From: Chloroflexota bacterium
Lineage (GTDB): Bacteria > Chloroflexota > Dormibacteria > CF-121
Assembly (NCBI GenBank): GCA_005889225.1
Contig: VBEW01000078.1
Location: 703 to 64,702, forward strand
DNA: 64,000 bases
Direction of reading: 5' to 3'
This document shows positions 3,251 through 38,111 of the stretch, piece by piece. Within the stretch, counting starts at the first letter, position 1, and each line of letters starts with the position of its first letter. The notes under the pieces were generated by a model. That model saw nothing but the letters and a program-made list of their open reading frames with translations, made no database searches and was not told where the DNA came from. The position numbers were made by a program, and so were the translations under genes.

Positions 3251-3540
3251 GCCACGGGCTCCTCGCCATCCGGCTCGGTCGCGGGGACAACCGTCGTCTC
3301 GTTCACGATCTCGTAGCCGGGGAGCAGCTCGCGAGCCACCTCGGTGATGGTTTCCCGCAACTGCGGTGTGGCGACATTGCCGCCCAGCATGACTCGATGC
3401 TCCTTGACATCCACCTTGAGGTCCTGTTCCGCAACCCTTGGGTCGTGGATGAGGGACTCGCGGATGTGTTCGGGAAGGTAGTCGGCGCGCAGCTCGCTCA
3501 CTGAGCGTAGACCTCGTCGTAGAGACGACGAATGACCCAA
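3247..3540 (-). CDS. BON-domain protein
   Basis: A 97-aa ORF with a BON-like pattern (DLKVDVKEHRVMLGGNVATPQLRE...GYEIVNETTV). The start overlaps the next gene by about 43 bp, so the true start may lie further downstream. Confidence 0.55.
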   Translation of the reverse strand: MGHSSSLRRGLRSVSELRADYLPEHIRESLIHDPRVAEQDLKVDVKEHRVMLGGNVATPQLRETITEVARELLPGYEIVNETTVVPATEPDGEEPVA

Positions 3541-4106
3541 TGGGGCACCAGGATATCGCTGGACTGAGCGTAGATCAGCAACGCCAGGACCCGGTGGGCG
3601 CCGACCCGAGCGCGACGGAGCAGGTACTCCCAGTCGAGTTCGGACCGCCCGATGATGGCGAGCGCATCGAACCAGTGGCGCGAGGTCTCCTCGCGATGGA
3701 CGATGCCCTTGATCACGATCTGATCTTCAGGACTGGGGATTCGCAGATGCAAGCCCTCGTAGCTGCGCTCGATCGAGTGGCTGAGCATCTCCGCGTCGAG
3801 ATAGATGCCGCCCATCACCATGAAGATGACATCGACCATGACGTCATCTTTGAAGGCCTTGTAGATCCACACCGGGTCCGTCTCCTCGGTGGTAAAGCCT
3901 GCGATTCGGAGCGCTTCCAGGACATCCCGGGCATCGTCGGGCCTGACCATGAGATCGATGTCGTGCGTCCAACGCGGGCGTCCGACCAGCGAGGAGGCGA
4001 GCCCGCCCAGGACCAGGAAGGGGTATCCGGCCTTCTCGACAGCCTCGACAGCCTCCCGGAGCACGTTGGCGAAGGCCGTGTCCGCGGCCGCTTCCCGCCG
4101 CCGCAC
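3498..4106 (-). CDS. nucleotidyltransferase-family protein (function unknown)
   Basis: A 202-aa ORF with a GG...S/HDIDL nucleotidyltransferase-like core (LVLGGLASSLVGRPRWTHDIDLMV). Confidence 0.55.
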   Translation of the reverse strand: MRRREAAADTAFANVLREAVEAVEKAGYPFLVLGGLASSLVGRPRWTHDIDLMVRPDDARDVLEALRIAGFTTEETDPVWIYKAFKDDVMVDVIFMVMGGIYLDAEMLSHSIERSYEGLHLRIPSPEDQIVIKGIVHREETSRHWFDALAIIGRSELDWEYLLRRARVGAHRVLALLIYAQSSDILVPHWVIRRLYDEVYAQ

Positions 4107-4150
4107 CCGCAGGATGTCACTCTTTGGGATATCTGAATTCTAATCGGCGC

Positions 4151-5281
4151 CTACGACTTCGGGATCGCCTTCTTCGGGTCGATGAAGGGCTTGGGCACCA
4201 CCCGTGCGGCCCGCTCGCCCCACGGAGTGGCGATGGTCAGCCTGGTTCCGAGCTCGGCAGCCGGCAGGGGAAGCATCGCGTAGCCGATGTTCTTTTTCAG
4301 GCGTGGCGAGTGAATGGCCGAGGTCACCTGCCCGACTGGCTGACCATCCTGCCGCACCGCCCATTTCGTCTCGTTGAACTCGATGGGAGGGCCTTCGATC
4401 TCGATGCCGGCAATCTTCCGGCGCACGCCCTCCGCCTTGATGCGGCGCAAGGCCGCCCTGCCGATGAAGTCCGCGGACTTTTCGAGATCGACCGTCCATC
4501 CCAGCCCGACTTCATAGGGGTTGTCGGCGAGCGTCATGTCGGCGCCGTAGTTGAGGATCCCCGCCTCGATCCGGCGGATGTCGGAGGGGCCAGTCGGCCG
4601 GATCTGATGGGCCTTGCCGGCGGCCATGATGCGCTCCCACAGCGCATCTCCCAGGCTGCCATCGCGCAGGTAGATCTCGTACCCGACTTCGCCCGTCCAG
4701 CCGGTTCGGGTCACGACGACGGAGATGGCGTCGAGCGATGCCTCGCTGAAGGCGTAGTACGGCATCGATGCGACCGGATCGCCGAACAGATCGGCGACCA
4801 GCGCTTTCGACTTGGGTCCCTGTAACTGAAGAGGCCACACGTCGGGTTCCACGATCTCGACGTTCAGGCCGGCGTTGATCGCGACGCCCCTGGCCCACAG
4901 CAGGACGTCACTGTCGGCGAGCGAAAGCCAGAACCGATTTTCCGCCAGCCGTAGCAGGACCGGGTCATTGATCACGCCGCCGTCGTCGGCGGTGATCAAG
5001 ACGTACTTGCCCTGACCGACAGCGCAGGTGGAGAGATCGCGTGGGGTCAGGCGCTGGGCCAGCGTAAAGGCATCCGGCCCGCTGAGTTCCACCTGTCGCT
5101 CGACCCCAACATCCCAGATGGCGACGTGCTCGATCAGATGCCAGTACTCCGAGATCGGGTCGTCGTAATAGCTCGGCAAGAAGGTGTGGTTGTAGACGGT
5201 GTAGGCCCGGCATCCGTAGCGTTGCGTCGCGTCGAAGTACGGCGAACGGCGCAGGCGAGCGCCGCGCTGGATCAGCCGCAT
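4151..5281 (-). CDS. aminomethyltransferase-family protein (GcvT/DmdA-like)
   Basis: The T-protein folate-binding fold extends to the C-terminus (WDVGVERQVELSGPDA...GYEIYL...KPFIDPKK). The start is set at the internal Met of MRLIQRGARL, because the Cys/Arg-rich extension upstream looks like an ORF artefact. Confidence 0.75.
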   Translation of the reverse strand: MRLIQRGARLRRSPYFDATQRYGCRAYTVYNHTFLPSYYDDPISEYWHLIEHVAIWDVGVERQVELSGPDAFTLAQRLTPRDLSTCAVGQGKYVLITADDGGVINDPVLLRLAENRFWLSLADSDVLLWARGVAINAGLNVEIVEPDVWPLQLQGPKSKALVADLFGDPVASMPYYAFSEASLDAISVVVTRTGWTGEVGYEIYLRDGSLGDALWERIMAAGKAHQIRPTGPSDIRRIEAGILNYGADMTLADNPYEVGLGWTVDLEKSADFIGRAALRRIKAEGVRRKIAGIEIEGPPIEFNETKWAVRQDGQPVGQVTSAIHSPRLKKNIGYAMLPLPAAELGTRLTIATPWGERAARVVPKPFIDPKKAIPKS

Positions 5282-5337
5282 ATCGAAAGGGACCACGCCG
5301 ATATTCTGCCTTGCCTTGGTAGAGGAGGGTTGGGTGG

Positions 5338-5532
5338 TCAGGTGCCCTGATCCCTGCTCGACCAGAGATAGGCTGCCGACTGGCCGGCAATGTACAGGAA
5401 CGCGATCAAGGCAAGCCCCGCACGGATAAACCAGACGACATGCGGCGTGGCAATCACGATGAGGATGGCGGAGGCCAGCCCGCCGCCTATCGGGATCGCC
5501 CAGCGCCACACCCGCCGATTGACGCGTCTCAT
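5338..5532 (-). CDS. small hydrophobic protein (hypothetical)
   Basis: A 64-aa ORF with two predicted transmembrane segments, immediately upstream of the GcvT-like gene on the same strand. Confidence 0.3.
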   Translation of the reverse strand: MRRVNRRVWRWAIPIGGGLASAILIVIATPHVVWFIRAGLALIAFLYIAGQSAAYLWSSRDQGT

Positions 5533-5637
5533 TCTCGTCTCATTCTGCTAACGAGGATGGGACCCGCGCTATTCCCGTTCTGTCTTGACTGCCGGCCTTG
5601 TCCACACCTAAACTGACAGCCTCGGATTGTTGAGTTT

Positions 5638-6114
5638 GTGGATCGTGCGAGTCAACTTATGAGAGACGCTATCAAGGACATACCCCTGTACGATCGGACG
5701 GCGCGGAAGGCGCACCAGTGGACGATGGTCGTGCTGGTCGCTGCTGGGCTCGTCATCCAGGGCGTCGCCGGTGGCCTGCTGATCGCGCTCGCCGGCCTCA
5801 TCATGCTGGTGGGCCGCTTCTGGTGGCCGGCCGACCTCGTCCGGCAGCTGGTCTGGCGGGCGCTCGAGCCGGCCGGCCTCCTCAAACGGGACGACGTTCA
5901 CGAGGACCACGAGACCCGGCGGGTGGCACGCGTGATGGGCGGCGCGATCTGGGTGATCGCAGCCGCGTTCATGCTCGCCGGCAACCCGGTGCTGGCGTGG
6001 GTGCTCAGCATCCCGATCGGGGTGATGGTCGCCCTCGACGCCAGCCTGGATTTTTGCGCCCTCTGCTTCCTGTTGGCGCAGCTGGACCAGCGCGGGCTCC
6101 TTCGGCGGGCTTAG
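5638..6114 (+). CDS. DUF4395 membrane protein
   Basis: A 158-aa protein with four hydrophobic segments. This family commonly pairs with thioredoxin-like genes, and one follows immediately here. Confidence 0.7.
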   Translation: MDRASQLMRDAIKDIPLYDRTARKAHQWTMVVLVAAGLVIQGVAGGLLIALAGLIMLVGRFWWPADLVRQLVWRALEPAGLLKRDDVHEDHETRRVARVMGGAIWVIAAAFMLAGNPVLAWVLSIPIGVMVALDASLDFCALCFLLAQLDQRGLLRRA

Positions 6115-6119
6115 CGTCG

Positions 6120-6554
6120 ATGGCCGGGCGCGCCCTGATCCTCGTCGCAGTGGTGGTCCTTGTCACGGTGACCGTGGTCGCCGTGCGGGCCTGGTCGAGG
6201 CGGCGCGTCGATGGCCTGGAGATCGGCGGCCGGGCACAGCTGTGGTCTGCGCTTGGGGAGGCGCCGGACGGAAGGCCATCCCTGGTCGTCTTCTCAACGC
6301 CAAGCTGCACGGCCTGCCGTACCGCGCAGTATCCCGCGGTTGAAGCGGTGGCCCGGCGGTTCGGCCAGGCGCTGCGCATCCTCATGGTTGACCTATCGAA
6401 GCGGCCGGCTGTCGGTCAGGCGTTCCGGGTGCTCACTGCGCCAACGACGGTGGTTCTGAGCGGCGACGGGCGGATCGCCAGCTTCAATCACGGGTTTGTG
6501 CCGGCCGAGCAGCTCGAGGCCCAGGTCGGCGCCGCGCGATCGTCGCCGCGGTAG
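6120..6554 (+). CDS. thioredoxin-family protein (membrane-anchored)
   Basis: The ATG at 6120 is in frame with the 5718 ORF. There is an N-terminal transmembrane segment and a CxxC motif (FSTPSCTACR). Confidence 0.7.
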   Translation: MAGRALILVAVVVLVTVTVVAVRAWSRRRVDGLEIGGRAQLWSALGEAPDGRPSLVVFSTPSCTACRTAQYPAVEAVARRFGQALRILMVDLSKRPAVGQAFRVLTAPTTVVLSGDGRIASFNHGFVPAEQLEAQVGAARSSPR

Positions 6555-7852: not shown

Positions 7853-8065
7853 CTAGGCCAGTTTGTGTTCCACGGCGAATCGGGTCGCCGCGCTTCGAGA
7901 TTTCAGGCCGAGCTTCGCGTAAATCGATCGCAAGTGGGCGTCCACCGTCCGGGTACTGACGCCGAGGCGTTCCGCGATTTGTCGATTCATCAGCCCGGCG
8001 GCGACCAGTGAGAGGACCTCGACCTCACGGGCGGTTAGGCCTTCGATCCGGACGGCCCTAGGCAC
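7853..8065 (-). CDS. LuxR-family HTH protein (stand-alone HTH)
   Basis: A 70-aa protein: LTAREVEVLSLVAAGLMNRQIAERLGVSTRTVDAHLRSIYAKLG. Confidence 0.7.
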   Translation of the reverse strand: MPRAVRIEGLTAREVEVLSLVAAGLMNRQIAERLGVSTRTVDAHLRSIYAKLGLKSRSAATRFAVEHKLA

Positions 8066-8134
8066 TGAGAACCGTTCGCGGTCGTCTAGTTGCCGGGGAC
8101 AGCGTCCGGTCGGCTAGAGTATGGGACAAGTTAG

Positions 8135-8152
8135 GCATTCAGCGATGATCAT
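8135..8152. promoter_or_regulatory. perfect inverted repeat ATGATCA-ttgc-TGATCAT (candidate operator)
   Basis: Read directly from the sequence, 22 bp upstream of the HTH-MEDS regulator start in a locally AT-richer stretch. Confidence 0.35.
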
Positions 8153-8173
8153 TGCTGATCATACCAATCAGCA

Positions 8174-8923
8174 GTGAGCGCAATGAGCGATAAATTATTT
8201 ACGACCAGGGAGACGTCAACGTTTCTGCGCGTAAGCGAGGCATCTGTTCGTCGGTGGGCTGACGCTGGGATTCTCCCGGCCAGCCGGGTGGGTCGCCGCC
8301 GCGCCCGTCGTTTTCGAGAAGCCGACCTCCTGCAGTTCATGCAATCCGGTCGGAGCGGACCCACGCCCGGTCCGGGAGCTGCACGCGCCATCGTCATTCA
8401 GGGGATGGCGGTGGCCCTCGGCAGCCACCTGGTCAGCTTCTATTCGAGCGACGCGGGCCGGCTCCGCGTGGCGGTTCCGTTCCTGCGGGACGGGCTGATG
8501 GCGGGCCAGGCATGCTTGATGTTCGTCACGGCACATCTGCGCGAGCTTTACCTGAAGGCGCTCAGCGGCGAGCGAGTTGGTGTCGACGCCGCGATGAGCA
8601 CGGGCTTGCTCACGTTCATGTCGACCCGCCAGGAGTCAGTTGCGGGCTGGATCGCGGATTTCGAGCGTCACGTGGAAGCAGCTCTGCGAGATCATCCCGG
8701 ACCGGTCCGCTTTCTGGGGGAGACCGTGACTGCCGTCTCGAGCCTGCAGTCCGTCAAGGAGTTATTGACCCTCGAGGAAGAGCTGGCGCCGGTCGTCCGG
8801 CGGTTGCCCGTCGTGATGCTCTGTCCATACGACGTGCGCACCTTCGACGGGTTCACGATCGTCGAGGCGCTCAAGCTGCACTTCGATACCTATAGCTACC
8901 AGCTTGCCTATTTCTTGAGCTGA
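8174..8923 (+). CDS. HTH (MerR/excisionase-type) + MEDS-domain regulator
   Basis: The N-terminus (LFTTRETSTFLRVSEASVRRWADAGILPA) is an HTH_17-like helix-turn-helix. The remainder (HLVSFYSSDAGRLRVAVPFLRDGLMAGQACLMFV...) matches the MEDS sensory domain described for DcmR. Confidence 0.65.
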   Translation: MSAMSDKLFTTRETSTFLRVSEASVRRWADAGILPASRVGRRRARRFREADLLQFMQSGRSGPTPGPGAARAIVIQGMAVALGSHLVSFYSSDAGRLRVAVPFLRDGLMAGQACLMFVTAHLRELYLKALSGERVGVDAAMSTGLLTFMSTRQESVAGWIADFERHVEAALRDHPGPVRFLGETVTAVSSLQSVKELLTLEEELAPVVRRLPVVMLCPYDVRTFDGFTIVEALKLHFDTYSYQLAYFLS

Positions 8924-8965
8924 CCCGAGCGGCTAGACTGAAGTCGAGAGGGGAAATAGAGTCCG

Positions 8966-9382
8966 ATGCCTCGCCGGCTACTTCGCGAGCCGCACGTCCT
9001 GGCCCACGAGCTCCGCACGCCGCTGGCCGTGCTGGCCGGCTGGTACTCACTCGTTCGGGATGCTGACATTTCTCCACAACGCACACCCGTGGAGTGGGCG
9101 CGAGCGATGGCCGCCTGCCAGGAGGCGGTGGATCGTCTCAACCTCGTCATCAGCCAGGCATGTAACGAAGCCGATTCCAGCAACCGCCTGCGGGGGCCGG
9201 CGTACGAGCAGTTCAATCAGTTGCTCGAGCGGACCGAGGCGGCGATCAGTCAGTCACGTGAGGTGCTGGTACAGCTTCAACTGCGCCGCCAGGACGCCAC
9301 TGACACAGCTCCGAAGAGGGTCATCCGGGGCGGCCGCGTGAGGCAACATCCGGCCGTCAGCCAGGCGGTCACTCCGCCCTAG
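8966..9382 (+). CDS. HisKA/DHp-only protein (phospho-acceptor H-box, no ATPase domain)
   Basis: LAHELRTPLAVLAGW is a canonical H-box. The remaining 100 aa are helical, with no G1/G2 boxes, and the ORF ends in an overlap with the convergent kinase gene. Confidence 0.5.
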   Translation: MPRRLLREPHVLAHELRTPLAVLAGWYSLVRDADISPQRTPVEWARAMAACQEAVDRLNLVISQACNEADSSNRLRGPAYEQFNQLLERTEAAISQSREVLVQLQLRRQDATDTAPKRVIRGGRVRQHPAVSQAVTPP

Positions 9383-14833: not shown

Positions 14834-15551
14834 CCGAAGGCCCTGGTTGCACGGGCGGGTCGCCGTCGTGACGGGAGCCAGTCATGGTATCGGACGTGCA
14901 ACCGCTGAGGCGATGGCGCGGGCCGGGGCGCATGTCGTACTCGCCGCGCGCAGCGCTCCGGCATTGACCCAGCTCGCCGAAGCGGTCCGGAGAGCTGGCG
15001 GGAGCGCCACCCCGGCGCCGGGCGATGTGAGCCGGGCCGATGACGTCGACCGGGTTTTCGCGGTCGCCGACGAGCTTGGTGGCGCCACCGCGCTGGTCTG
15101 CGCGGCGGCCGTCTTGACGAAGGTCCCGCTCGTGGAGACTTCCCTTAAGACCTGGGAACAAACGCTGGCGACCAATCTGACCGGGATGTTTCTCTGCTGC
15201 CGGGCGGCGTTCCGCTCGATGCAGAGCTTGGGAGGCGGGCGCATGGTCAACCTGGCCTCTCTATCCGGGGTCTATGGCACGGAGAAGTTTCCGGGTCTCG
15301 CCGCCTACAACGTGTCCAAGTACGGCGTGATCGGGCTCACCGAGGCGATTGCCGTCGAGGGTCGCGAGCATGGTATCAGCGCGCTGTGCATCAGCCCAGG
15401 CGCGGTGGACACCGACCTTCTGCGCCAGGCCAATCCGTCGCTAAAGCCGGGCCTCAAGCCCAGCGATGTCGCGGAGTTGATCGTGACCCTGCTGGATCAG
15501 CCGATGGATAGCCTTAGCGGCGCCAACATCCCCCTGTTTTCCAACCGTTAG
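14826..15551 (+). CDS. SDR-family oxidoreductase
   Basis: The ATG at 14826 overlaps the glycosyltransferase stop by 8 nt. Carries [10 protein letters not shown] and YNVSK motifs. Confidence 0.8.
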
Positions 15552-15563
15552 AGGAAGGGCTGA

Positions 15564-15731
15564 TTACCGCTCGGGCTGTAGAACGGCCTCGCACCCCGGG
15601 CACCGTTCGATGGTTACCAGGGTGCCCCCCACCATGGACGCGGTATGGGTGGCCTGCGGTCGAACGTCGTGGCCGCAGCTCTGGCAATAGGTCGTCTTCG
15701 CTGCCGGCTCGTCGTCGGGAGTCTTGGGCAT
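15564..15731 (-). CDS. small zinc-ribbon protein
   Basis: The C-terminal 55 aa contain two CxxC pairs (CQSCGH...CPGCE). The long N-terminal extension of the ORF is probably not translated. Confidence 0.4.
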   Translation of the reverse strand: MPKTPDDEPAAKTTYCQSCGHDVRPQATHTASMVGGTLVTIERCPGCEAVLQPER

Positions 15732-15747
15732 CCTATTAATAGGATAG

Positions 15748-16416
15748 ATGGCGGAGCACCTGGTGCCGCTGGGAATGCTTGTCGTGGTGGCAGGCCTGCT
15801 CTGCGTCGCTGCCAGACGCGCGCCTGGGCGATGGCTCGATTGGGTCGCGGCGGCCATCGCGCTCGCCATCGTGCTCGCCGAGCTCAGCTGGCAGCCGTAT
15901 GTCCTGGCCAACCACAGCTGGTCCGCGGCGTCCAGCCTGCCGGTGCAGTTGTGCGACGTCGGTGGCTTCGTCGCGGCCGCTGCGCTCATCTGGCGTCAGC
16001 TCTTGCTGGTCGAGATCGCCTATTTCTGGGGTTTCGGCGGGACGCTTCAGGCTCTACTGACGCCCGACCTCCGGGATCACTTCCCGACATTTCCGTATTT
16101 GCAGTTCTATGCCACCCATGACCTCGTGGTGCTCGCGGCGCTGTTTCTCGTCATTGGCCTCGGGCTCCACCCGCGGCCGGGCTCAGTCCGCCGCATCTTC
16201 CTCCTGACCCTCGTCTTCACGGCCGCGATTGCGATCGTCGACCTGGTTACGGGTGGCAATTACATGTACCTGCGGCGGGTGCCGGCCGAAGTTAGCTTGC
16301 TCAGTTTGATGGGCCCGTGGCCGTGGTACATCGCCGTTGGGGTGCTCGTCGCCCTGATCGTGTTAGCCGTCCTCGATACCCCGTTTCGGTGGTCCCGCGG
16401 CCGCGCCGACCGATGA
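15748..16416 (+). CDS. integral membrane protein (TIGR02206/YwaF-like)
   Basis: A 222-aa protein with 6-7 transmembrane segments. Confidence 0.6.
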   Translation: MAEHLVPLGMLVVVAGLLCVAARRAPGRWLDWVAAAIALAIVLAELSWQPYVLANHSWSAASSLPVQLCDVGGFVAAAALIWRQLLLVEIAYFWGFGGTLQALLTPDLRDHFPTFPYLQFYATHDLVVLAALFLVIGLGLHPRPGSVRRIFLLTLVFTAAIAIVDLVTGGNYMYLRRVPAEVSLLSLMGPWPWYIAVGVLVALIVLAVLDTPFRWSRGRADR

Positions 16417-28122: not shown

Positions 28123-28581
28123 TTGAGCGCACAGAGTGCCGGGTTGGTTCTCTACCGAAAGCGGGACGGGAAGCTGGAAGTGCTCCTGGTCCATCCAGGT
28201 GGTCCTTTCTGGCAGAAACGCGACGACGGTGCCTGGTCGATACCGAAGGGCGAGCTTGCCGAGAGCGAGGCCGGCATCGACGTGGCCCGACGCGAATTTG
28301 AGGAAGAGCTCGGTGTGCCGGCTCCCGACGGCGAGCTCACCACGCTGGGCGATGTGCGCCAGGCCGGGGGCAAGGTTGTCCACGCGTGGGCGGCACCCGG
28401 GGACGTCGATGTCACGCGACTGGCGAGCAACACGTTCGAGATCGAATGGCCGCCCCGCTCGCGCAAGATGCAGCGGTTTCCGGAGGTCGATCGCGCCGCC
28501 TGGTTCGATCTGGATGCGGCGCGCCGCAAGCTCCTGCCAGCGCAGCGCCTGTTCCTGGATAGGCTCGAAGACCAGCTGTGA
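28123..28581 (+). CDS. NUDIX hydrolase
   Basis: The NUDIX box reads GELAESEAGIDVARREFEEELG. It overlaps the ligase gene by 4 nt. Confidence 0.75.
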   Translation: MSAQSAGLVLYRKRDGKLEVLLVHPGGPFWQKRDDGAWSIPKGELAESEAGIDVARREFEEELGVPAPDGELTTLGDVRQAGGKVVHAWAAPGDVDVTRLASNTFEIEWPPRSRKMQRFPEVDRAAWFDLDAARRKLLPAQRLFLDRLEDQL

Positions 28582-30311
28582 CCGTCTCCGAGTTGAGTGC
28601 CTACCTCGACCGGCTGGAATCGACCAGCAGCCGGAACGAGCTCGTGAAGACGCTCGCTGAGCTCTACTCGAAAAGCTCGCCGGATGAGATCCAGCCATTG
28701 ACCTATTTGATCCAGGGCCGCCTCGTTCCTTTCTTCGAACCGGTCGAGATCGGCCTCGGTGAGAAGCTGGTCATCGCGGCCATCGCCCAGGCGTTCGCCA
28801 CGCCGATCGATGAGGTCTCGAAACTCTTCGGCCAGATCGGCGACCTGGGCCAGGTGGCCGCAAAGCTCTCGGCGCATGGGTCGAGCGCCGCGCTGCCACT
28901 CAGTGAGGTGCACGCGAGATTGATGGAAATCGCCGGCGCGGCCGGCGCCGGCTCAGTGGAGAAGAAGCGCACGCTGTTCGCGGCCTTGCTAAAACAGGTC
29001 GACCCCACCTCGGCCAAGCACCTGGTGCGCATCGCGCTTGGTCGCCTGCGGCTAGGCATCGGCGATCCCACCGTGCTGGACGCGCTCTCGTTTGCCAGGA
29101 AGGGCGACCGCTCTCTTCGGCCGGTGCTGGAAGGCGCGTACAATCGCGTGTCCGACCTGGGACTGATCGCGAAGACCTTCTGGTCCGGCGGCGAAGAGGA
29201 CGTGAACGCGCTCAAGGTCACGGTTGGAAGGCCGATCCGGAGCCAGCTCGCAGAGCGCCTGCCAAACCCTGAAGCGGTAATCAAGAAGCTTGGTATGGTC
29301 GCGGTCCAACCGAAGTACGACGGGATCCGGGTGCAGATCCACAAAAACGGCTCGGAGGTGCGCATTTTTTCGCGCAACCTCGAGGACTACACGCTGATGT
29401 TCTCCGAGCTCACTGCGGCGGCTCGAGGGCTGAAGGACGAAACGCTCATGCTCGACGGCGAGGCGATCGCCTACAGCAAGGAATTGGAGGAATACCTTCC
29501 GTTCCAGCTGACCGCGAGCCGCCGGCGGCAGCACGGCATCGAAAAGGCCGCCCAGGACCTGCCGCTGGTCGCCTTCATCTTCGACATCCTGTACCAGAAC
29601 GGCCGGGACCTCACGGAGCTACCGTACGAGCAGCGGCTCGCGCTGGTCGACGAGGTGATCGCCGGCTCCAGCGTTCTCCTCCCTGCGCCGATTATCAAGA
29701 CCGACTCGGTCGAGGTGCTCACCAAGACGCTGCTGGACTCCATCAGCCAGGGCCTGGAGGGAGTCGTGGTCAAGCGACCCGAATCCAAATACCAGGCGGG
29801 CGCGCGCAACTTCAATTGGGTGAAGCTGAAGCGCCACACCAGCGGCGAACTCAACGACACGGTCGACCTGGTCCTCCTCGGCTACTACTTTGGCAAAGGC
29901 AAGCGCGCGGAGTTCGGCGTGGGGGCGCTGCTGGCGGGCGTTTACGATGCGGAAAACGACCGGTTCGCAAGCATTACCAAGCTTGGTACCGGCTTGTCCG
30001 ACGCCGAATGGCGGCAGATCCACGAGCGTGCGGACAAGCTGCAGGTCGATCAGCGACCGGCGCGAGTGGATTCGATCCTGGTCCCCGATGTGTGGCTCGA
30101 ACCCGAGGTGGTGGTCGAGGTAATGGCCGACGAAATTACGCCCAGCCCCAGACATACAGCCGGCAAGGTTGGCGATGAGCCGGGGTTTGCGCTTCGATTT
30201 CCACGGGTGGTTGCCTTCCGCGGGGCGGACAAAAGGCCGGAGGATGCGACGACGGTCAAGGAGATTGCCGAGCTGTTCGGTCAGCAGCGCGAGCGCAAAC
30301 AACCCGCCTGA
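28578..30311 (+). CDS. ATP-dependent DNA ligase
   Basis: Motif I is KYDGIRVQIH and later ligase motifs are present (EGVVVKRP); 577 aa with an N-terminal DNA-binding domain. Confidence 0.85.
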   Translation: MTVSELSAYLDRLESTSSRNELVKTLAELYSKSSPDEIQPLTYLIQGRLVPFFEPVEIGLGEKLVIAAIAQAFATPIDEVSKLFGQIGDLGQVAAKLSAHGSSAALPLSEVHARLMEIAGAAGAGSVEKKRTLFAALLKQVDPTSAKHLVRIALGRLRLGIGDPTVLDALSFARKGDRSLRPVLEGAYNRVSDLGLIAKTFWSGGEEDVNALKVTVGRPIRSQLAERLPNPEAVIKKLGMVAVQPKYDGIRVQIHKNGSEVRIFSRNLEDYTLMFSELTAAARGLKDETLMLDGEAIAYSKELEEYLPFQLTASRRRQHGIEKAAQDLPLVAFIFDILYQNGRDLTELPYEQRLALVDEVIAGSSVLLPAPIIKTDSVEVLTKTLLDSISQGLEGVVVKRPESKYQAGARNFNWVKLKRHTSGELNDTVDLVLLGYYFGKGKRAEFGVGALLAGVYDAENDRFASITKLGTGLSDAEWRQIHERADKLQVDQRPARVDSILVPDVWLEPEVVVEVMADEITPSPRHTAGKVGDEPGFALRFPRVVAFRGADKRPEDATTVKEIAELFGQQRERKQPA

Positions 30312-30837: not shown

Positions 30838-31174
30838 CGTCCTCCTTCACTTCTTTGAGTTCTTCCAACACAACATCCAACCGATCGAAGCGCCGCGACC
30901 AGGACCGCTCGTAGGTCTTCACCCAGTCGTGGATTGGCTTGAGCGGCTGGCCATTGACCGAATACATCCGCTGCCGCCCTTCGTCGCGAACGCCGACCAG
31001 CCCCACTTCCCGCAGCACCCGAAGGTGCTTCGAGACCAAGGGCTGGGCCAGACCGACCAGCCTGACCAGGTCATTCACGGGGCGTTCCCCTCCGGAGAGG
31101 ACGTCCAGGATCTGCCGGCGTCGGGGCTCGGCCACGGCGTTGAACGCATCGGCCGTCGTTGCCGCTCGTGCCAT
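30818..31174 (-). CDS. ArsR/SmtB-family transcriptional regulator
   Basis: Reads FNAVAEPRRRQILDVLSGGERPVNDLVRLVGLAQPLVSKHLRVLREVGLV. Confidence 0.8.
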   Translation of the reverse strand: MARAATTADAFNAVAEPRRRQILDVLSGGERPVNDLVRLVGLAQPLVSKHLRVLREVGLVGVRDEGRQRMYSVNGQPLKPIHDWVKTYERSWSRRFDRLDVVLEELKEVKEDDDGEDE

Positions 31175-31274
31175 GGAGGAATTATATACCGATATAGGAA
31201 TATGTCAAGTCTCTCAACGGCACATACCGCGCCGTATTGACAAAGGGTCCTCCTGGGCGCAGGCTCAGGCCTCG

Positions 31275-32201
31275 ATGTCAGCGGTACGCCCTGGCCACGG
31301 TCTGACCCGCGCCATCGCCACTCATCCCGTTGGCGCGTACCTCGTGATTCTCTATCCGGTCAGCTGGATCCTCTGGATGCCGGCATTGCTCGGCAAATCC
31401 GGATTGGGTGTCCTCTCGGTCGACATTCCAGTCCAGCTGAGCATCCTCCTGGTCAGCATCTTCGGTCTGACCGGCGTCGCCTTCCTCGTGACCCGGATTG
31501 CAGATGGTAAGCCTGGTACGCGGGAGCTGCGGCGCCATTACCTCCATTTCCGCGCGGGCCCGCAGTGGTATGTAGTTGCGCTGGCCGGTGCACCCACTCT
31601 GCTGGCGCTCGTGGGCTTTCTTACGCACGGCACGGGTGCGCTGGGCCCTTTCGGGCGCCATGCGCTCGAGATTCCGACGCTCTACCTGTTGACGCTGATC
31701 GTCATCGCCATTCTGATCTCGGTGTGGGAGGAAGGTGGCTGGATGTCCTTTGTGACTACGCGCCTGCAGCCGCGATTAGGACCAGTCTGGGCCAGCGTTG
31801 CTGTCGCACCCCTCTTTGGCTTGATTCACTTTCCCTTGTTTTTCATCACGGGCGGGCTCATCGATAACGCCCGCCCGCAGGGCATTCACATCCTTGAGTA
31901 CGCGCTGTATCTCGTCGTCTTGTTTTCCGTGCCCGTGCGAATCCTGATCACCTGGGTATTCAATGCCACCGGCGGCAGCCTTCCCATCGTCGCTCTCCTG
32001 CACGCCTCCATCGACACGACTGCCTCGGGAGCCGTCCTCACGGCGTTCTACCCCGGCACAGACGGCCGGCTGCTCTATGTCGGATTGGCGGCTGCCGCTT
32101 TGGCGGTCGTCATCGCGACTCGGGGTCGCCTTGCCTACCGGCTCATCTCCGATCCGACCCAGCAAGTTCCCGCGTCCAGTCCCGCGCCGGTTACGGGCTA
32201 G
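31275..32201 (+). CDS. CPBP-family intramembrane metalloprotease
   Basis: The ATG at 31275 reads MSAVRPGHG. Carries the motifs WEEGGWMSF...APLFGLIHFP and a paralogue sits at 11654..12505. Confidence 0.7.
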   Translation: MSAVRPGHGLTRAIATHPVGAYLVILYPVSWILWMPALLGKSGLGVLSVDIPVQLSILLVSIFGLTGVAFLVTRIADGKPGTRELRRHYLHFRAGPQWYVVALAGAPTLLALVGFLTHGTGALGPFGRHALEIPTLYLLTLIVIAILISVWEEGGWMSFVTTRLQPRLGPVWASVAVAPLFGLIHFPLFFITGGLIDNARPQGIHILEYALYLVVLFSVPVRILITWVFNATGGSLPIVALLHASIDTTASGAVLTAFYPGTDGRLLYVGLAAAALAVVIATRGRLAYRLISDPTQQVPASSPAPVTG

Positions 32202-35408: not shown

Positions 35409-37403
35409 ATGGCGCAACGGGTCCAGGTCCTGCCAGGCAAGGCCCAAAAAAGCCCGGCAGTCGTCCCCAAGCGGGATAAGAACCCTCATCCTGGTTTCCA
35501 GTCCCAAGCGGGCATCCTATTTCTGCAGTCGACCGCGGGCAATGCCGCGGTCAGTGCGCTCCTCGACGTCCAGCGGCAGGCCGTCGCCGTCAAGCCGCGG
35601 ACCACTACGACCGGGTCGCACCCGCTGGTCAAGCGCGGTTCGAGCGGCCCAGTGGTCGAGGAGTTGCAGACCAAGCTCAACCTGATCCCGAGCGGTGCGC
35701 CGGATGCCTTCCTCAATGTCAGCGGCAGTTTTGACGCCCTCACCGAGACTGCAGTGAATGCATTCCAGACGAACGTCATGGGAATGGCCGTCCCGGATGG
35801 AAAGGTGGGAAAGAACACCTGGCCCGCGATCGATAACGCCGTGGTGGCCGCCGAGAACACGCCTCACGCTCACCCGGTGCTCCATCTGAATGACAGCAGT
35901 GCGGCGGTCGGAGAGGCGCAGGAGAAGCTGAATGCGGTGGGAGCCGCGCCTGTGCTGAGTGTCGATGCGATGTTCGGGGCGCCGATGCTGACCGCGGTCA
36001 AGAACTTCCAGCACACGTCGATGGCCATCGCGATCCCGTCCGGGGTCGTCGATGCGCCCACCTGGACGGCGCTCGACAACGCTGCAGCTGGCGGCGGAAC
36101 GCGCGCGGCCCGAGGTGGCACTGGCATCGAGGAGCATGTTGGCCCCGCGGGAGGCGGCTCCCCGCTGGCAGCCGCCATGGGAAGCACCCATGTGGTCGTG
36201 GGAGCGGGCAATGTGCTGAAGGGGATCGCGGTCAAAGAGATGCAGCAGAAGTTGAACGGCTTCCTGCGCGGCAAGGGTAAAGCCTTCATGAAGGCTAACG
36301 GGGTCGCCGTGCTGGGCGAGGACGGGACGTTCGGACCGAAGACGCAGAAGGTGCTGACACTCTTCCAGACCCAGAACGGGCTGCTTCCTCCTACGGGTGT
36401 GGCGGATGCCGCCACCTGGAACAGGCTGGACGCCTTCACCTCCACTGTTGGCACCGAATCGCGCCGGTGGCAGGAGGTAGTGGGCGGTCACACCTATGGC
36501 CTGACCTCGGTCTATTCGTGGGCGCTGACGCCGAAAACCATCACTGTCACCGTCGGGCTGAACTTCGTCCCGCCGGCACCGGCTGTGCCCATGCCACCGG
36601 CTCCCCTCGGAACATGGTTGGGCTTCATCAAGCAGACCTGGAACCAGTTCAAGGCGGTCAATGTGGCCGACCCCACGAAATCGATCAACATCGCCTTCAA
36701 TCCGATCCAGTCCACGGATCCGTCTGCCCGCACAGTGAGGGTGATGCCGGGGGCTGGGCGATCCGACGCGGGCAGGTTCTTCGTGGTAGACCCGAACATC
36801 GCCAACACGGTTTCGCACGAGTTCGGACACATGATCGGACTCAAGGACGAGTATCAGCAAACTGCCGCGGATTACCGCGCCAGCACTGGATACGAAGCAC
36901 CGGTCGGCCAGACAACTGGACCGACCAGCGGCAAGACTCCCGCGCAGGTGGCTCAGCAGCTACAAACCGCGATCGTTAACAGGTCCGCGCCCAGCGTGAG
37001 TCCGAGTCCGGCTGCCCAGGTGGTCGCGGGGATGGGCCAGGGAGCCTTCGCCCAGCGAGTGATTGCGGCCTACAGGGCGCTACCTTCTGTGGCCGTCGCG
37101 GCGGTGGCGCACGTGGCCGCTGCCCCTCCGAACCTCGGCGTCCAGGCATCGCCGGCGTTCGCCACGACTGGCGACCTGGTGAAGGACCTCGACACGGGTC
37201 TGACCAACTTTGACCTCGGCAGCATCCCGAATGACAAGTACCAGGTGATCGAGGTGCTCAGCTACGACAGCGGTTCGATCATGGGCGATCCGTCGCGGCA
37301 GGCCGACCAGCACGAGCATGGGGCGGAGCCGCGCCACGTCCGCGAATTCACCCAGATCGTGGCACACACCAAGGGCGGTGCGTGGGAACCGAGGCAGCGA
37401 TGA
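35409..37403 (+). CDS. DUF4157-type toxin-like protein: N-terminal eCIS-effector signature + 3 peptidoglycan-binding repeats + snapalysin-like Zn-metallopeptidase (HEFGHMIGLKDEY)
   Basis: A 664-aa protein. Residues 35-55 (ILFLQSTAGNAAVSALLDVQRQ) match the DUF4157 'LQRxxGNxAV' core. Three roughly 65-aa repeats match PG_binding_1 (GxxGxxVxxLQxxLN...DGxFGxxTxxAVxxFQ). HExxHxxGxxDEY indicates an Asp-zincin of the M7 type. Confidence 0.75.
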   Translation: MAQRVQVLPGKAQKSPAVVPKRDKNPHPGFQSQAGILFLQSTAGNAAVSALLDVQRQAVAVKPRTTTTGSHPLVKRGSSGPVVEELQTKLNLIPSGAPDAFLNVSGSFDALTETAVNAFQTNVMGMAVPDGKVGKNTWPAIDNAVVAAENTPHAHPVLHLNDSSAAVGEAQEKLNAVGAAPVLSVDAMFGAPMLTAVKNFQHTSMAIAIPSGVVDAPTWTALDNAAAGGGTRAARGGTGIEEHVGPAGGGSPLAAAMGSTHVVVGAGNVLKGIAVKEMQQKLNGFLRGKGKAFMKANGVAVLGEDGTFGPKTQKVLTLFQTQNGLLPPTGVADAATWNRLDAFTSTVGTESRRWQEVVGGHTYGLTSVYSWALTPKTITVTVGLNFVPPAPAVPMPPAPLGTWLGFIKQTWNQFKAVNVADPTKSINIAFNPIQSTDPSARTVRVMPGAGRSDAGRFFVVDPNIANTVSHEFGHMIGLKDEYQQTAADYRASTGYEAPVGQTTGPTSGKTPAQVAQQLQTAIVNRSAPSVSPSPAAQVVAGMGQGAFAQRVIAAYRALPSVAVAAVAHVAAAPPNLGVQASPAFATTGDLVKDLDTGLTNFDLGSIPNDKYQVIEVLSYDSGSIMGDPSRQADQHEHGAEPRHVREFTQIVAHTKGGAWEPRQR

Positions 37404-37427
37404 TAGGGGAAAGATGACGGGGGAGAC

Positions 37428-38111
37428 ATGATCGTCAGCTACGCGCGCATCGGAGGCCGCGTACCTCCGCCCGACAACGAGGGCCTGCAGGTAGAGGACG
37501 ATGGCAGCTTCACGATGTGGCGTTCGATCGCGCCCTCCGTCGGCCGCTTCGCGGGAAAGCTTTCGGCGGATGAGTTGAGCCGGCTCAAAACAGAAGCGGA
37601 GAAGGCGGCTGCGCAGGGCGACGTCAGCCGGCCGCCGACAATGGATGGGTCCGCCGAGCGGTTCCAGGTCGAAGGCGCCACCGCGACGATGGGCAGCGAC
37701 GACTACATAGAGGGACCGTGGGGAGAGCTGGCAACTCACGTGCGCAAGCTGCTCGGCGAGCTGGTCAGCATGCCCCAGGCGGCCGTGGGTCTCGAGGTGG
37801 GGGAGGATGGGCGAAGCGCGCGGCTGGTCCACCTGGGCGACAAACCGCTTGCGGTCGATCTTTCGAAGCTGTCCATCCGGGCCGTCCTCTGGGGGCGCGG
37901 TTTTCGCAAGCTAGGGGACTGGTCAACCCCGGCAAAGCCCGGGCCAGTCCAGGCCGAGGCATCCGATTCGTGGAACGCTCCGCTACCCTTCGACCACGGT
38001 CTCAAGCCGGGCAAGAACAAGGTTCTGCACGTCTACGTAACGTTCGCTGTGTCGGAGAACGGTCAGCGAGCGGATGTTAGGGTCGAGCATACCCCCGCTG
38101 TTCCGGCCTAG
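37428..38111 (+). CDS. hypothetical protein tightly linked to the toxin-like gene (candidate immunity/inhibitor or accessory)
   Basis: The ATG lies 25 bp after the upstream stop, behind a GGGGAG RBS. It is 227 aa, with no signal peptide and no known domain. Confidence 0.5.
   Translation: MIVSYARIGGRVPPPDNEGLQVEDDGSFTMWRSIAPSVGRFAGKLSADELSRLKTEAEKAAAQGDVSRPPTMDGSAERFQVEGATATMGSDDYIEGPWGELATHVRKLLGELVSMPQAAVGLEVGEDGRSARLVHLGDKPLAVDLSKLSIRAVLWGRGFRKLGDWSTPAKPGPVQAEASDSWNAPLPFDHGLKPGKNKVLHVYVTFAVSENGQRADVRVEHTPAVPA

Follow-up and report, generated by a model that had tools for sequence, protein, structure and literature searches.

A leader-tagged, peptidoglycan-binding protease and its partner as a putative detached cargo module of Streptomyces-type contractile injection systems

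Several proteins carried by contractile injection systems (CIS) are the closest described counterparts of the gene pair reported here. In AlgoCIS, the Bacteroidota extracellular type of Algoriphagus machipongonensis, the N-terminal domain (NTD) upstream of DUF4157 is needed for AAA+-dependent loading into the tube lumen, and DUF4157 is dispensable (10.64898/2026.05.27.728243). Its proteins Cgo1 and Cgo2 are encoded with the CIS and have a disordered N-terminus, no Sec signal and a variable C-terminal effector domain. The tube lumen houses Cgo1 (ALPR1_12695), which has a predicted metalloprotease C-terminal domain (CTD) (PMC8894135). Under stress, cytoplasmic injection systems of the Streptomyces type kill the cells that make them, and for these Casu et al. 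suggested effectors aimed at the envelope, without naming a biochemical activity. Sco4256-58 of Streptomyces coelicolor have a similar N-terminus in common and occupy the lumen; CIS-mediated death depends on them, and they have been proposed as envelope-targeting effectors (PMC10066040). Two of them carry a carbohydrate-binding domain. Small DUF4157 (eCIS_core) proteins such as Sle2/SLIV_17110 (PMC13277306) carry an LQRxxGNxAV leader.

The window, that is, the whole 64-kb stretch of DNA analysed, contains two adjacent genes, and both open reading frames predicted earlier agreed with the ORF list. The edges of the PG_binding_1 repeats below were set by a conserved HP...LQxKLN...TW..ID pattern.

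35409..37403 (stop included), plus strand: protease gene, 664 aa, with leader, three PG_binding_1 repeats and a metzincin-like peptidase (ORF list)
35409..35513, plus strand: N-terminal stretch, aa 1-35, basic, Pro/Gln-rich and hypervariable among homologues (unconserved columns)
35514..35579, plus strand: leader motif ILFLQSTAGNAAVSALLDVQRQ, of the form LQxxxGNxAV...QR, aa 36-57 (invariant columns)
35619..35840, plus strand: PG_binding_1 repeat 1, aa 71-144 (PF01471; edges by conserved pattern)
35871..36083, plus strand: PG_binding_1 repeat 2, aa 155-225 (PF01471; edges by conserved pattern)
36207..36437, plus strand: PG_binding_1 repeat 3, aa 267-343 (PF01471; best Pfam stretch aa 274-340)
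36429..37400, plus strand: C-terminal metzincin-like peptidase domain, aa 341-664 (outside every curated family)
36816..36860, plus strand: zinc-binding/catalytic motif HEFGHMIGLKDEYQQ, aa 470-484 (invariant columns, zinc-helix alignment)
37269..37289, plus strand: SGSIMGD, candidate Met-turn, aa 621-627 (conserved M625, G626)
37311..37349, plus strand: conserved block HEHGAEPRHVREF, aa 635-647 (H635, H637, R642, H643)
37419..37425, plus strand: Shine-Dalgarno-like GGGGGAG ahead of the partner ATG (sequence read)
37428..38111 (stop included), plus strand: partner gene, 227 aa, modelled as a Mago-nashi-like alpha/beta platform and an Ig-like beta-sandwich

Neither protein has a signal peptide or a transmembrane (TM) segment by hydropathy, which counts in favour of a cargo role and confirms what had been stated for the partner. 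Sec or Tat secretion of the enzyme was rejected because the hydropathy analysis showed no signal. The first 70 aa of the protease hold 9 K/R against 2 D/E, with 6 P, 8 Q and no hydrophobic signal, and its N-terminal stretch is probably disordered. A word-indexed search gave 26 homologues of the 664-aa protein, all metagenomic. In the homologue alignment L39, Q40, G44, N45, A47, Q55 and R56 of the leader are invariant and the flanks are hypervariable. ILFLQSTAGNAAVSALLDVQRQ is the sole leader match within the 64-kb window; the leader is family-wide in variant forms, and at least 63 of 115 representatives of at least 340 aa carry it.

The earlier note took this motif for the core of DUF4157 (PF13699), an assignment that has to be withdrawn. 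PF13699 is unmatched in the 664-aa protein even at E <= 1. The positive control, the DUF4157 protein of a related cluster, matched at E 2.6e-34 over aa 84-161, with its motif at aa 49-57. The distance from the motif to the PF13699 envelope downstream of it is 27 to 115 residues in true DUF4157 proteins (in a second example, aa 76 versus 191-268). Because the motif lies upstream of the match, the leader is separate from DUF4157 and not its core. With the DUF4157 domain absent, the claimed architecture of DUF4157, three peptidoglycan-binding repeats and an M7 peptidase does not exist here. The PF13699 profile itself, of about 79 aa and ending in HELTHVVQQ, is an HExxH domain different from the peptidase of the window.

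The association of the motif with injection systems proved sound. The leader heads the DUF4157 protein in all five CIS clusters that have one (5/5), which argues for a cargo role, and also heads other cluster neighbours, for example a GW + VanY peptidoglycan peptidase. The window protein thus shows the marks of cargo, a polar basic N-terminus and a leader common to DUF4157 proteins and to other neighbours. Fusions of leader, PF13699 and the same peptidase family, found in locus L058 and in 11/81 family representatives, likewise count for cargo. Judging from their domain order, the fusions put the peptidase in the slot of the variable effector domain of proven AlgoCIS cargo, so that some relatives have the NTD, DUF4157 and peptidase layout of Cgo1/Cgo2. 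By analogy with AlgoCIS, the leader may be a CIS loading signal. Against a cargo role, the PROCIS authors report no conservation of loading sequences from one system to another. A 45-aa leader profile had zero matches in a 5.8-billion-protein index, the motif being too short for significance.

We collected 55 loci of the pair from species-representative genomes and metagenomes. CIS clusters contain or adjoin the pair in eight relatives (L003/L034, L011, L024, L043 from Nocardioides speluncae, L048, L049, L053 and L072, plus the P0063 contig). The operon order is LuxR - Pvc16_N - AAA+ - PGB-peptidase - partner - eCIS_core - sheath - tube - ... - VgrG. Over its full length the operon's peptidoglycan-binding (PGB) protein is homologous to that of the window (39% identity over 664 aa, E 1e-107), and the two partners share 44% identity. 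At E 1e-220 and in almost identical register, the sheath of L003 matches the Streptomyces cytoplasmic CIS models PDB 8BKY/8BL4. The linked clusters are of the Streptomyces cytoplasmic type, unlike AlgoCIS. No Streptomyces locus of the pair appeared in the genome scan. Within the clusters the pair sits after the AAA+/cap genes and before the sheath gene, as Sco4256-4258 do in the same CIS lineage, and the genes for the small DUF4157 proteins directly adjoin it. Sle2 is a cargo-spike bridge (PMC13277306), unlike the wall enzyme of the window. Sco4256-58 differ by description in having a TM segment and ricin-type domains, with no protease, PG_binding_1 repeat or partner gene described.

Our data suggest, with a probability of about 0.6, that the two genes form an 'orphan' cargo module, detached from the Streptomyces-type CIS that it would serve. 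The protease would be synthesised in the cytoplasm without a Sec signal, and its disordered basic N-terminus with the LQxxxGNxAV leader would steer it to the CIS. The co-translated cytoplasmic partner would bind the enzyme before delivery, either as a chaperone or adaptor or as an inhibitor that keeps it latent. Firing of the CIS would move the protease across the membrane, where the three PG_binding_1 repeats would anchor it on peptidoglycan. The HExxHxxGxxD peptidase could then cut wall peptides or wall-bound proteins, which would promote lysis, either of the producer or of a target cell. Like Cgo1/Cgo2, the window protein has a probably disordered N-terminus, no Sec signal and a C-terminal effector domain, and some of its relatives are encoded with a CIS. 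It differs in lacking DUF4157, in having three PG_binding_1 repeats instead, in its dedicated partner gene and in lying away from a CIS cluster; the Cgo1 CTD and the window peptidase are likened by description. We place the pair among the known CIS effector modules, in which a leader, three PG_binding_1 repeats and a peptidase, together with a partner, form a new variant.

The three PG_binding_1 stretches reported earlier are genuine (PF01471 100.2 bits against a cut-off of 23, whole-protein E 7.3e-29). Repeat 3 is kept in all family members, including those without repeats 1-2. The earlier note knew of no prior account of the combination, but the architecture is not unique: PG_binding_1 is present in 51/81 diverse relatives of the peptidase domain, and the leader is widespread in the family as given above. 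In PHROGs the repeats match the wall-binding modules of phage endolysins. An endolysin-like enzyme that opens the producer wall for release or passage of CIS particles, regulated by the partner and not loaded into the tube, would fit this match and the missing signal peptide, which holin-dependent endolysins also lack. The position of the pair among core genes in some clusters would also fit, and lysis is the accepted eCIS release model (PMC8213781). However, the leader common to DUF4157 proteins and the fusions behind DUF4157 favour the cargo route, the window has no holin-like gene alongside the pair, the peptidase domain and the partner are absent from 2.9 million viral contigs and from PHROGs, and most copies are distant from any CIS cluster. 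We regard such a lysis accessory as unlikely. Origin as a phage module or endolysin was rejected because only the repeats match PHROG endolysin families and the other two parts have no viral relatives among those contigs.

The peptidase motif was also read correctly: HEFGHMIGLKD within HEFGHMIGLKDEYQQ has the HExxHxxGxxD form, and its residues are kept in homologues. The site HEFGHxxGLxDEYQ is invariant, which counts for a cargo role: H470, E471, H474, G477, D480, E481 and Y482 never change among 16 homologues, and the corresponding H, E, G, H, D, E and Y columns are constant across 81-97 diverse members of the family. The zinc helices of myroilysin, IgA protease and snapalysin can be aligned with HEFGHMIGLKDEYQQ. 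Among metzincins whose third ligand is Asp, snapalysin (M7), thuringilysin/InhA (M6) and igalysin/IgA protease (M64) have the same HExxHxxGxxD, and the GLxDEY extension of the window peptidase is found in M64 too. Since M6 and M64 share the motif, it does not discriminate M7. The M7 label given earlier falls away, as similarity specific to snapalysin, which has a small catalytic domain of about 130 aa, is missing beyond the zinc helix and snapalysin is no closer to the window peptidase than are other metzincins. Membership of M6 or M64 was rejected as well, every match being under the cut-off, and the domain reaches the cut-off of no Pfam or NCBIfam family model. The peptidase is assigned to an uncurated metzincin-like family of 967 cluster representatives. 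SGSIMGD contains a conserved S-x-M-G and, following the S-x-M pattern of metzincins, is a candidate Met-turn; M625 and G626 do not vary among 16 sequences and reach at least 90% conservation among 81-97, and the structure model around SGSIMGD is of low confidence (pLDDT < 50). The window peptidase differs from these metzincins in a helical insert of ~135 aa between the zinc motif and the putative Met-turn, and in an additional invariant HxHG..PRHV block, in which H635, H637, R642 and H643 of HEHGAEPRHVREF are invariant or at least 90% conserved.

Co-conservation of the partner, proposed earlier as a check, was observed: it follows the protease in 47/55 loci across several phyla. Of the three findings by which the earlier note said it would fail, two did not arise, since homologues keep the HExxHxxGxxD residues and the downstream gene is syntenic, and the third arose by half, as PG_binding_1 is significant and DUF4157 is not. 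Pairwise identities of the two proteins correlate (r = 0.69), which counts for a cargo module. As had been noted, the partner has no known domain (it is unmatched in Pfam, NCBIfam, PHROGs and PADLOC), and it is modelled confidently as a two-domain protein. The empty PADLOC search led us to reject a defence system. The earlier note had left the partner as an immunity protein, an inhibitor or a chaperone. In a classical toxin-immunity pair, the protease would act as a toxin against competing bacteria, into which it is injected, and siblings would be guarded by the partner. The tight and conserved linkage of the genes and the lower mean pairwise identity of the partner (35% versus 51% for the enzyme), which implies faster evolution, are in line with this, and adjacent antitoxins exist for some eCIS toxins (PMC8213781). 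However, a signal peptide, a lipobox and a TM segment are all missing from the partner (maximum KD19 0.83), which leaves it no way to reach an enzyme bound to peptidoglycan on the far side of the membrane. The partner is also unusually conservative for an immunity protein, being recognisable at 35-45% identity across phyla with 17 invariant residues. Its place in the CIS clusters is with core genes, the AAA+ ATPase to one side and the DUF4157 and sheath genes to the other, and not in a variable 3' toxin-immunity cassette. Its match to Ipi is weak, and beta-sandwiches are ubiquitous. Because peptidoglycan is extracytoplasmic and the partner has no export signal, immunity is the weakest of the three roles, and a chaperone or inhibitor fits better. 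A toxin-immunity pair therefore seems improbable to us.

The window copy stands apart from any CIS cluster. Searches by tblastn and with HMMs built from related clusters were negative throughout the 64-kb window for sheath, tube, baseplate, AAA+ and DUF4157 genes, as the earlier note had reported for the structural genes, and the pair is thus not encoded in or next to a CIS cluster within this stretch. Close relatives of the Dormibacterota type are detached in 6/6 contexts (the window, L001, L002, L004, L005 and L071), and a CIS gene within 10 kb is missing at about 40 of the roughly 50 full-length loci. Both counts weigh against a cargo role. Actinoplanes sp. CA-142083 and Agromyces sp. MMS24-K17 also carry a detached pair. 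The counts would suit a housekeeping or developmental wall protease with an unrecognised, leader-reading export pathway, of which the CIS-linked copies are secondary recruitments; most loci, including all of the Dormibacterota type, are detached among ordinary genes, and the family is large. A known export signal is absent from this protein, however, and its leader is that of DUF4157 proteins. DUF4157 is highly specific to eCIS loci, with an odds ratio of 2614 (PMC8213781), and PF13699 itself occurs in 11/81 representatives. We consider a CIS-independent protease the least likely of the alternatives. Our literature search found no paper connecting Dormibacterota with CIS.

If the pair is orphan CIS cargo, LQxxxGNxAV...QR might be a short, portable address tag that works across phyla, for CIS of the Streptomyces type and for others. 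Effectors could then be encoded anywhere in the genome, orphan cargo would far outnumber cluster-encoded cargo, and the partner, with its Mago-like platform and Ig-like domain, would found a new class of cargo chaperone or inhibitor. We put this broader idea forward tentatively and with less than even confidence. If it is true, cluster-based surveys badly under-count CIS effector repertoires, and the peptidoglycan-anchored protease would be an executioner of CIS-mediated regulated death in Actinomycetota, Chloroflexota and Dormibacterota. A leader-tagged peptidoglycan-binding protease in Streptomyces-type clusters of several phyla is a testable candidate for the executioner that breaks the envelope, and its conserved partner may help to show how so harmful an enzyme is quieted or loaded. 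The leader could mark effectors that are encoded far from the machine and missed by current cluster-based catalogues, and it may help in the design of loading tags for engineered particles. For the window alone, two annotations are corrected (neither DUF4157 nor M7) and a likely delivery route is suggested for the pair.

A folded 664-aa protein is large for the tube lumen unless it is unfolded for loading, which counts against a cargo role; unfolding for loading has been proposed for Alg15. In Streptomyces davawensis, the peptidoglycan-binding protein of the BN159_7588/BN159_7587 pair forms a heterocomplex with its neighbour's product, belongs to a CIS cluster and binds mycelium (PMC11126660). 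That pair lies downstream of baseplate genes, is described as replacing a tail-fibre binding domain, and has no peptidase described. Its primer-derived termini (MAKPLSA... to ...EGAGTGPN; MHADLSR...) do not fit the family termini, and from these termini and the cluster position we judge the resemblance to be an analogy. Promoter and terminator scans around the pair gave nothing above shuffled expectation. The partner has its own ribosome-binding site, as previously noted, and begins 24 nt past the upstream stop behind GGGGGAG; in relatives the partner start overlaps the upstream stop by 4 nt.

The gene pair was found in the ORF list where the earlier note had placed it, with the same lengths:

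35409..37403, + strand, large protein gene (664 aa)
37428..38111, + strand, partner gene (227 aa)

The partner ATG lies 24 nt past the upstream stop and 2 nt past GGGGGAG, as read from the sequence. The three PG_binding_1 (PGB) repeats claimed for the large protein were recovered in Pfam (three stretches at E 7.3e-29; score 100 bits, cut-off 23). Its residues 1-70 form a basic segment with a high content of Pro and Gln. Hydropathy revealed no signal peptide in either protein, and neither has a convincing transmembrane segment. The sequence observation of the earlier note is partly confirmed.

The large protein has no Pfam match to DUF4157 (eCIS_core, PF13699), even at E <= 1, and the label given to it on the basis of LQxxxGNxAV has to be dropped. 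This motif is a separate leader rather than part of DUF4157. In a related cluster, a genuine DUF4157 protein has LQRAAGNAGV at aa 49-57 and PF13699 at aa 84-161. The leader starts homologues of the large protein and also the DUF4157 protein in 5/5 clusters possessing one, and it is found on further neighbouring proteins, for example a GW + VanY peptidoglycan peptidase. In a 16-sequence alignment, the N-terminal block is invariant at L39, Q40, G44, N45, A47, Q55 and R56. The strict leader expression matched 63 of the 115 peptidase-family representatives of at least 340 aa, and many of the others carry variants such as MQRTYGNRAVQRSLQR. Actinoplanes members have the form LLQAGGNAALARLLQ, duplicated in some. 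No Sec signal was present in any family member examined. At ~4820-6290 (+) of locus L016, a 491-aa protein combines leader, GW and VanY (PF02557, E 1.7e-16), a second peptidoglycan peptidase type with the same leader as the large protein. In L001, a Dormibacterota-type contig, a 442-aa protein directly upstream of the pair (8016-9344) combines this leader with a HELTHVDQ zincin at the C-terminus that is weakly eCIS_core-like (E 0.0025). It is therefore a second leader-bearing gene there, without CIS (contractile injection system) genes nearby.

Assignment of the peptidase to M7, or to any other curated family, was not borne out. Pfam gave sub-threshold scores only (M64 0.049, M6 0.08, Reprolysin_5 0.12), NCBIfam agreed, and a PDB sequence-profile search gave marginal matches (E 0.04-0.5) limited to the zinc helix. 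The active site is probably metzincin-like. A word-indexed search found 26 homologues of the large protein, all metagenomic, one labelled Candidatus Dormibacteraeota. In the 16-sequence alignment the zinc-motif block (H470, E471, F, G, H474, G477, L, D480, E481, Y, Q483) and a C-terminal block (M625, G626, H635, H637, R642, H643, W659) are invariant. Distant homologues keep leader and peptidase and lose the first one or two PGB repeats. When only the peptidase domain was used for an exhaustive profile search, 967 cluster representatives matched at E <= 1e-3, and 128 did so at <= 1e-30. Its position is nearly always C-terminal, and H, E, G, H, D, E and Y are invariant across 81-97 diverse members. 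Among 81 diverse relatives, PGB occurred in 51, eCIS_core in 11, Annexin repeats in 9, and M6, with weak scores only, in 3. The invariant HxHG..PRHV block (window 37311..37349) follows the putative Met-turn. Such a block is not known to us from described metzincins and may form a second metal site or contribute to substrate binding. At L058, leader, PF13699, linker and the same peptidase type are fused in one protein, so the peptidase occupies the slot of the variable effector domain in the NTD-DUF4157-CTD order of proven AlgoCIS cargo.

The partner has no match in Pfam, NCBIfam, PHROGs or PADLOC, and its family comprises 68 homologues. Scanning one genome per species gave 67 loci, in Dormibacterota, Chloroflexia, Limnocylindrales, Anaerolineae, Acidimicrobiia, Agromyces, Actinoplanes/Paractinoplanes, Nocardioides and Pseudonocardia. 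The proposed linkage held: in 47 of 55 loci the partner gene lies 3' of the peptidase gene, in the same orientation. The two proteins correlate in their pairwise identities (r = 0.69), with faster divergence of the partner (mean identity 35% vs 51% for the peptidase protein).

Two distant partner homologues (about 45% identity) are situated within complete CIS operons, in the order GerE/LuxR - Pvc16_N - AAA+ - PG_binding_1 protein - partner - eCIS_core - sheath - tube - DUF6760 - ... - tube - LysM-tube - VgrG. The PG_binding_1 protein encoded there is homologous to the window protein along its whole length (39% identity over 664 aa, E 1e-107) and bears the leader and HEFGHLIGLRDEYQQ. The sheath of the same operon matches PDB 8BKY/8BL4, models of the Streptomyces cytoplasmic CIS (PMC10066040), at E 1e-220. 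CIS genes lie within 10 kb of the pair at eight places only (L003/L034, L011, L024, L043, L048, L049, L053, L072). The CIS link is thus supported in relatives, but tblastn and HMMs built from CIS-linked clusters found no CIS gene in the 64-kb window. The genes around the pair there are unremarkable (TetR, thioesterase, DUF2255, RibD_C, hydrolase, methyltransferase). Close Dormibacterota-type relatives are detached too and their neighbourhoods differ, leaving the two-gene unit as the sole conserved block. None of the papers searched links Dormibacterota with CIS.

DUF4157 is an eCIS core domain and is commonly N-terminal to toxins (PMC8213781). In AlgoCIS, loading is mediated by the AAA+ ATPase Alg15 and needs a disordered region upstream of DUF4157, which is itself dispensable (10.64898/2026.05.27.728243). 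Cgo1, whose CTD is a predicted metalloprotease, lies inside the tube lumen (PMC8894135). The S. coelicolor proteins Sco4256-58 resemble one another at the N-terminus and fill the lumen; CIS-dependent death requires them, and envelope-targeting effectors were proposed as the cause of lysis (PMC10066040). In S. lividans, cargo is connected to the spike by a small DUF4157 protein whose gene adjoins that of the sheath (PMC13277306). A peptidoglycan-binding domain was reported on 68 predicted eCIS toxins, so that the general idea was already anticipated (PMC11297309). BN159_7588/7587 of S. davawensis are an analogous pair, but they are positioned after baseplate genes, and their primer-derived termini match neither of our families.

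The best reading is that the pair is a detached cargo module of a Streptomyces-type CIS. The leader would direct loading into the CIS, the PGB repeats would target the wall, and the metzincin-like peptidase would cleave it, the wall being the presumed substrate. An endolysin-like role of the large protein is weakened by the leader, which ties it to the cargo route, and by viral contigs, on which neither protein was found. The cytoplasmic partner would act as chaperone or inhibitor. The immunity function also suggested for it is unlikely because it cannot reach the wall compartment.

At L024, where a sheath gene comes immediately after the pair (sheath match from 8577), two large leader-bearing proteins of 610 and 754 aa without Pfam match are encoded on the minus strand, opposite to the adjoining pair (motifs at 1870 and 4146). 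A further, divergent copy of the peptidase is encoded on a different contig (L051) of this Ilumatobacter MAG. In the window, the gene at 28578..30311 (+) encodes an ATP-dependent DNA ligase with N, M and C domains (E 1.7e-49), a routine repair enzyme without relation to the pair. An Rce1-like/CPBP intramembrane protease gene (30939..32201, +) lies ~3 kb upstream of the pair, and in L002 the homologous pair has another such gene (1717-2577, -) directly upstream. The association may be recurrent or a matter of chance. In L071, 17 nt separate the end of a GAF/HisKA_3 histidine kinase gene (3426-5108) from the pair, and a GerE regulator is encoded nearby (15503-16087); GerE-type regulators also head CIS-linked operons.
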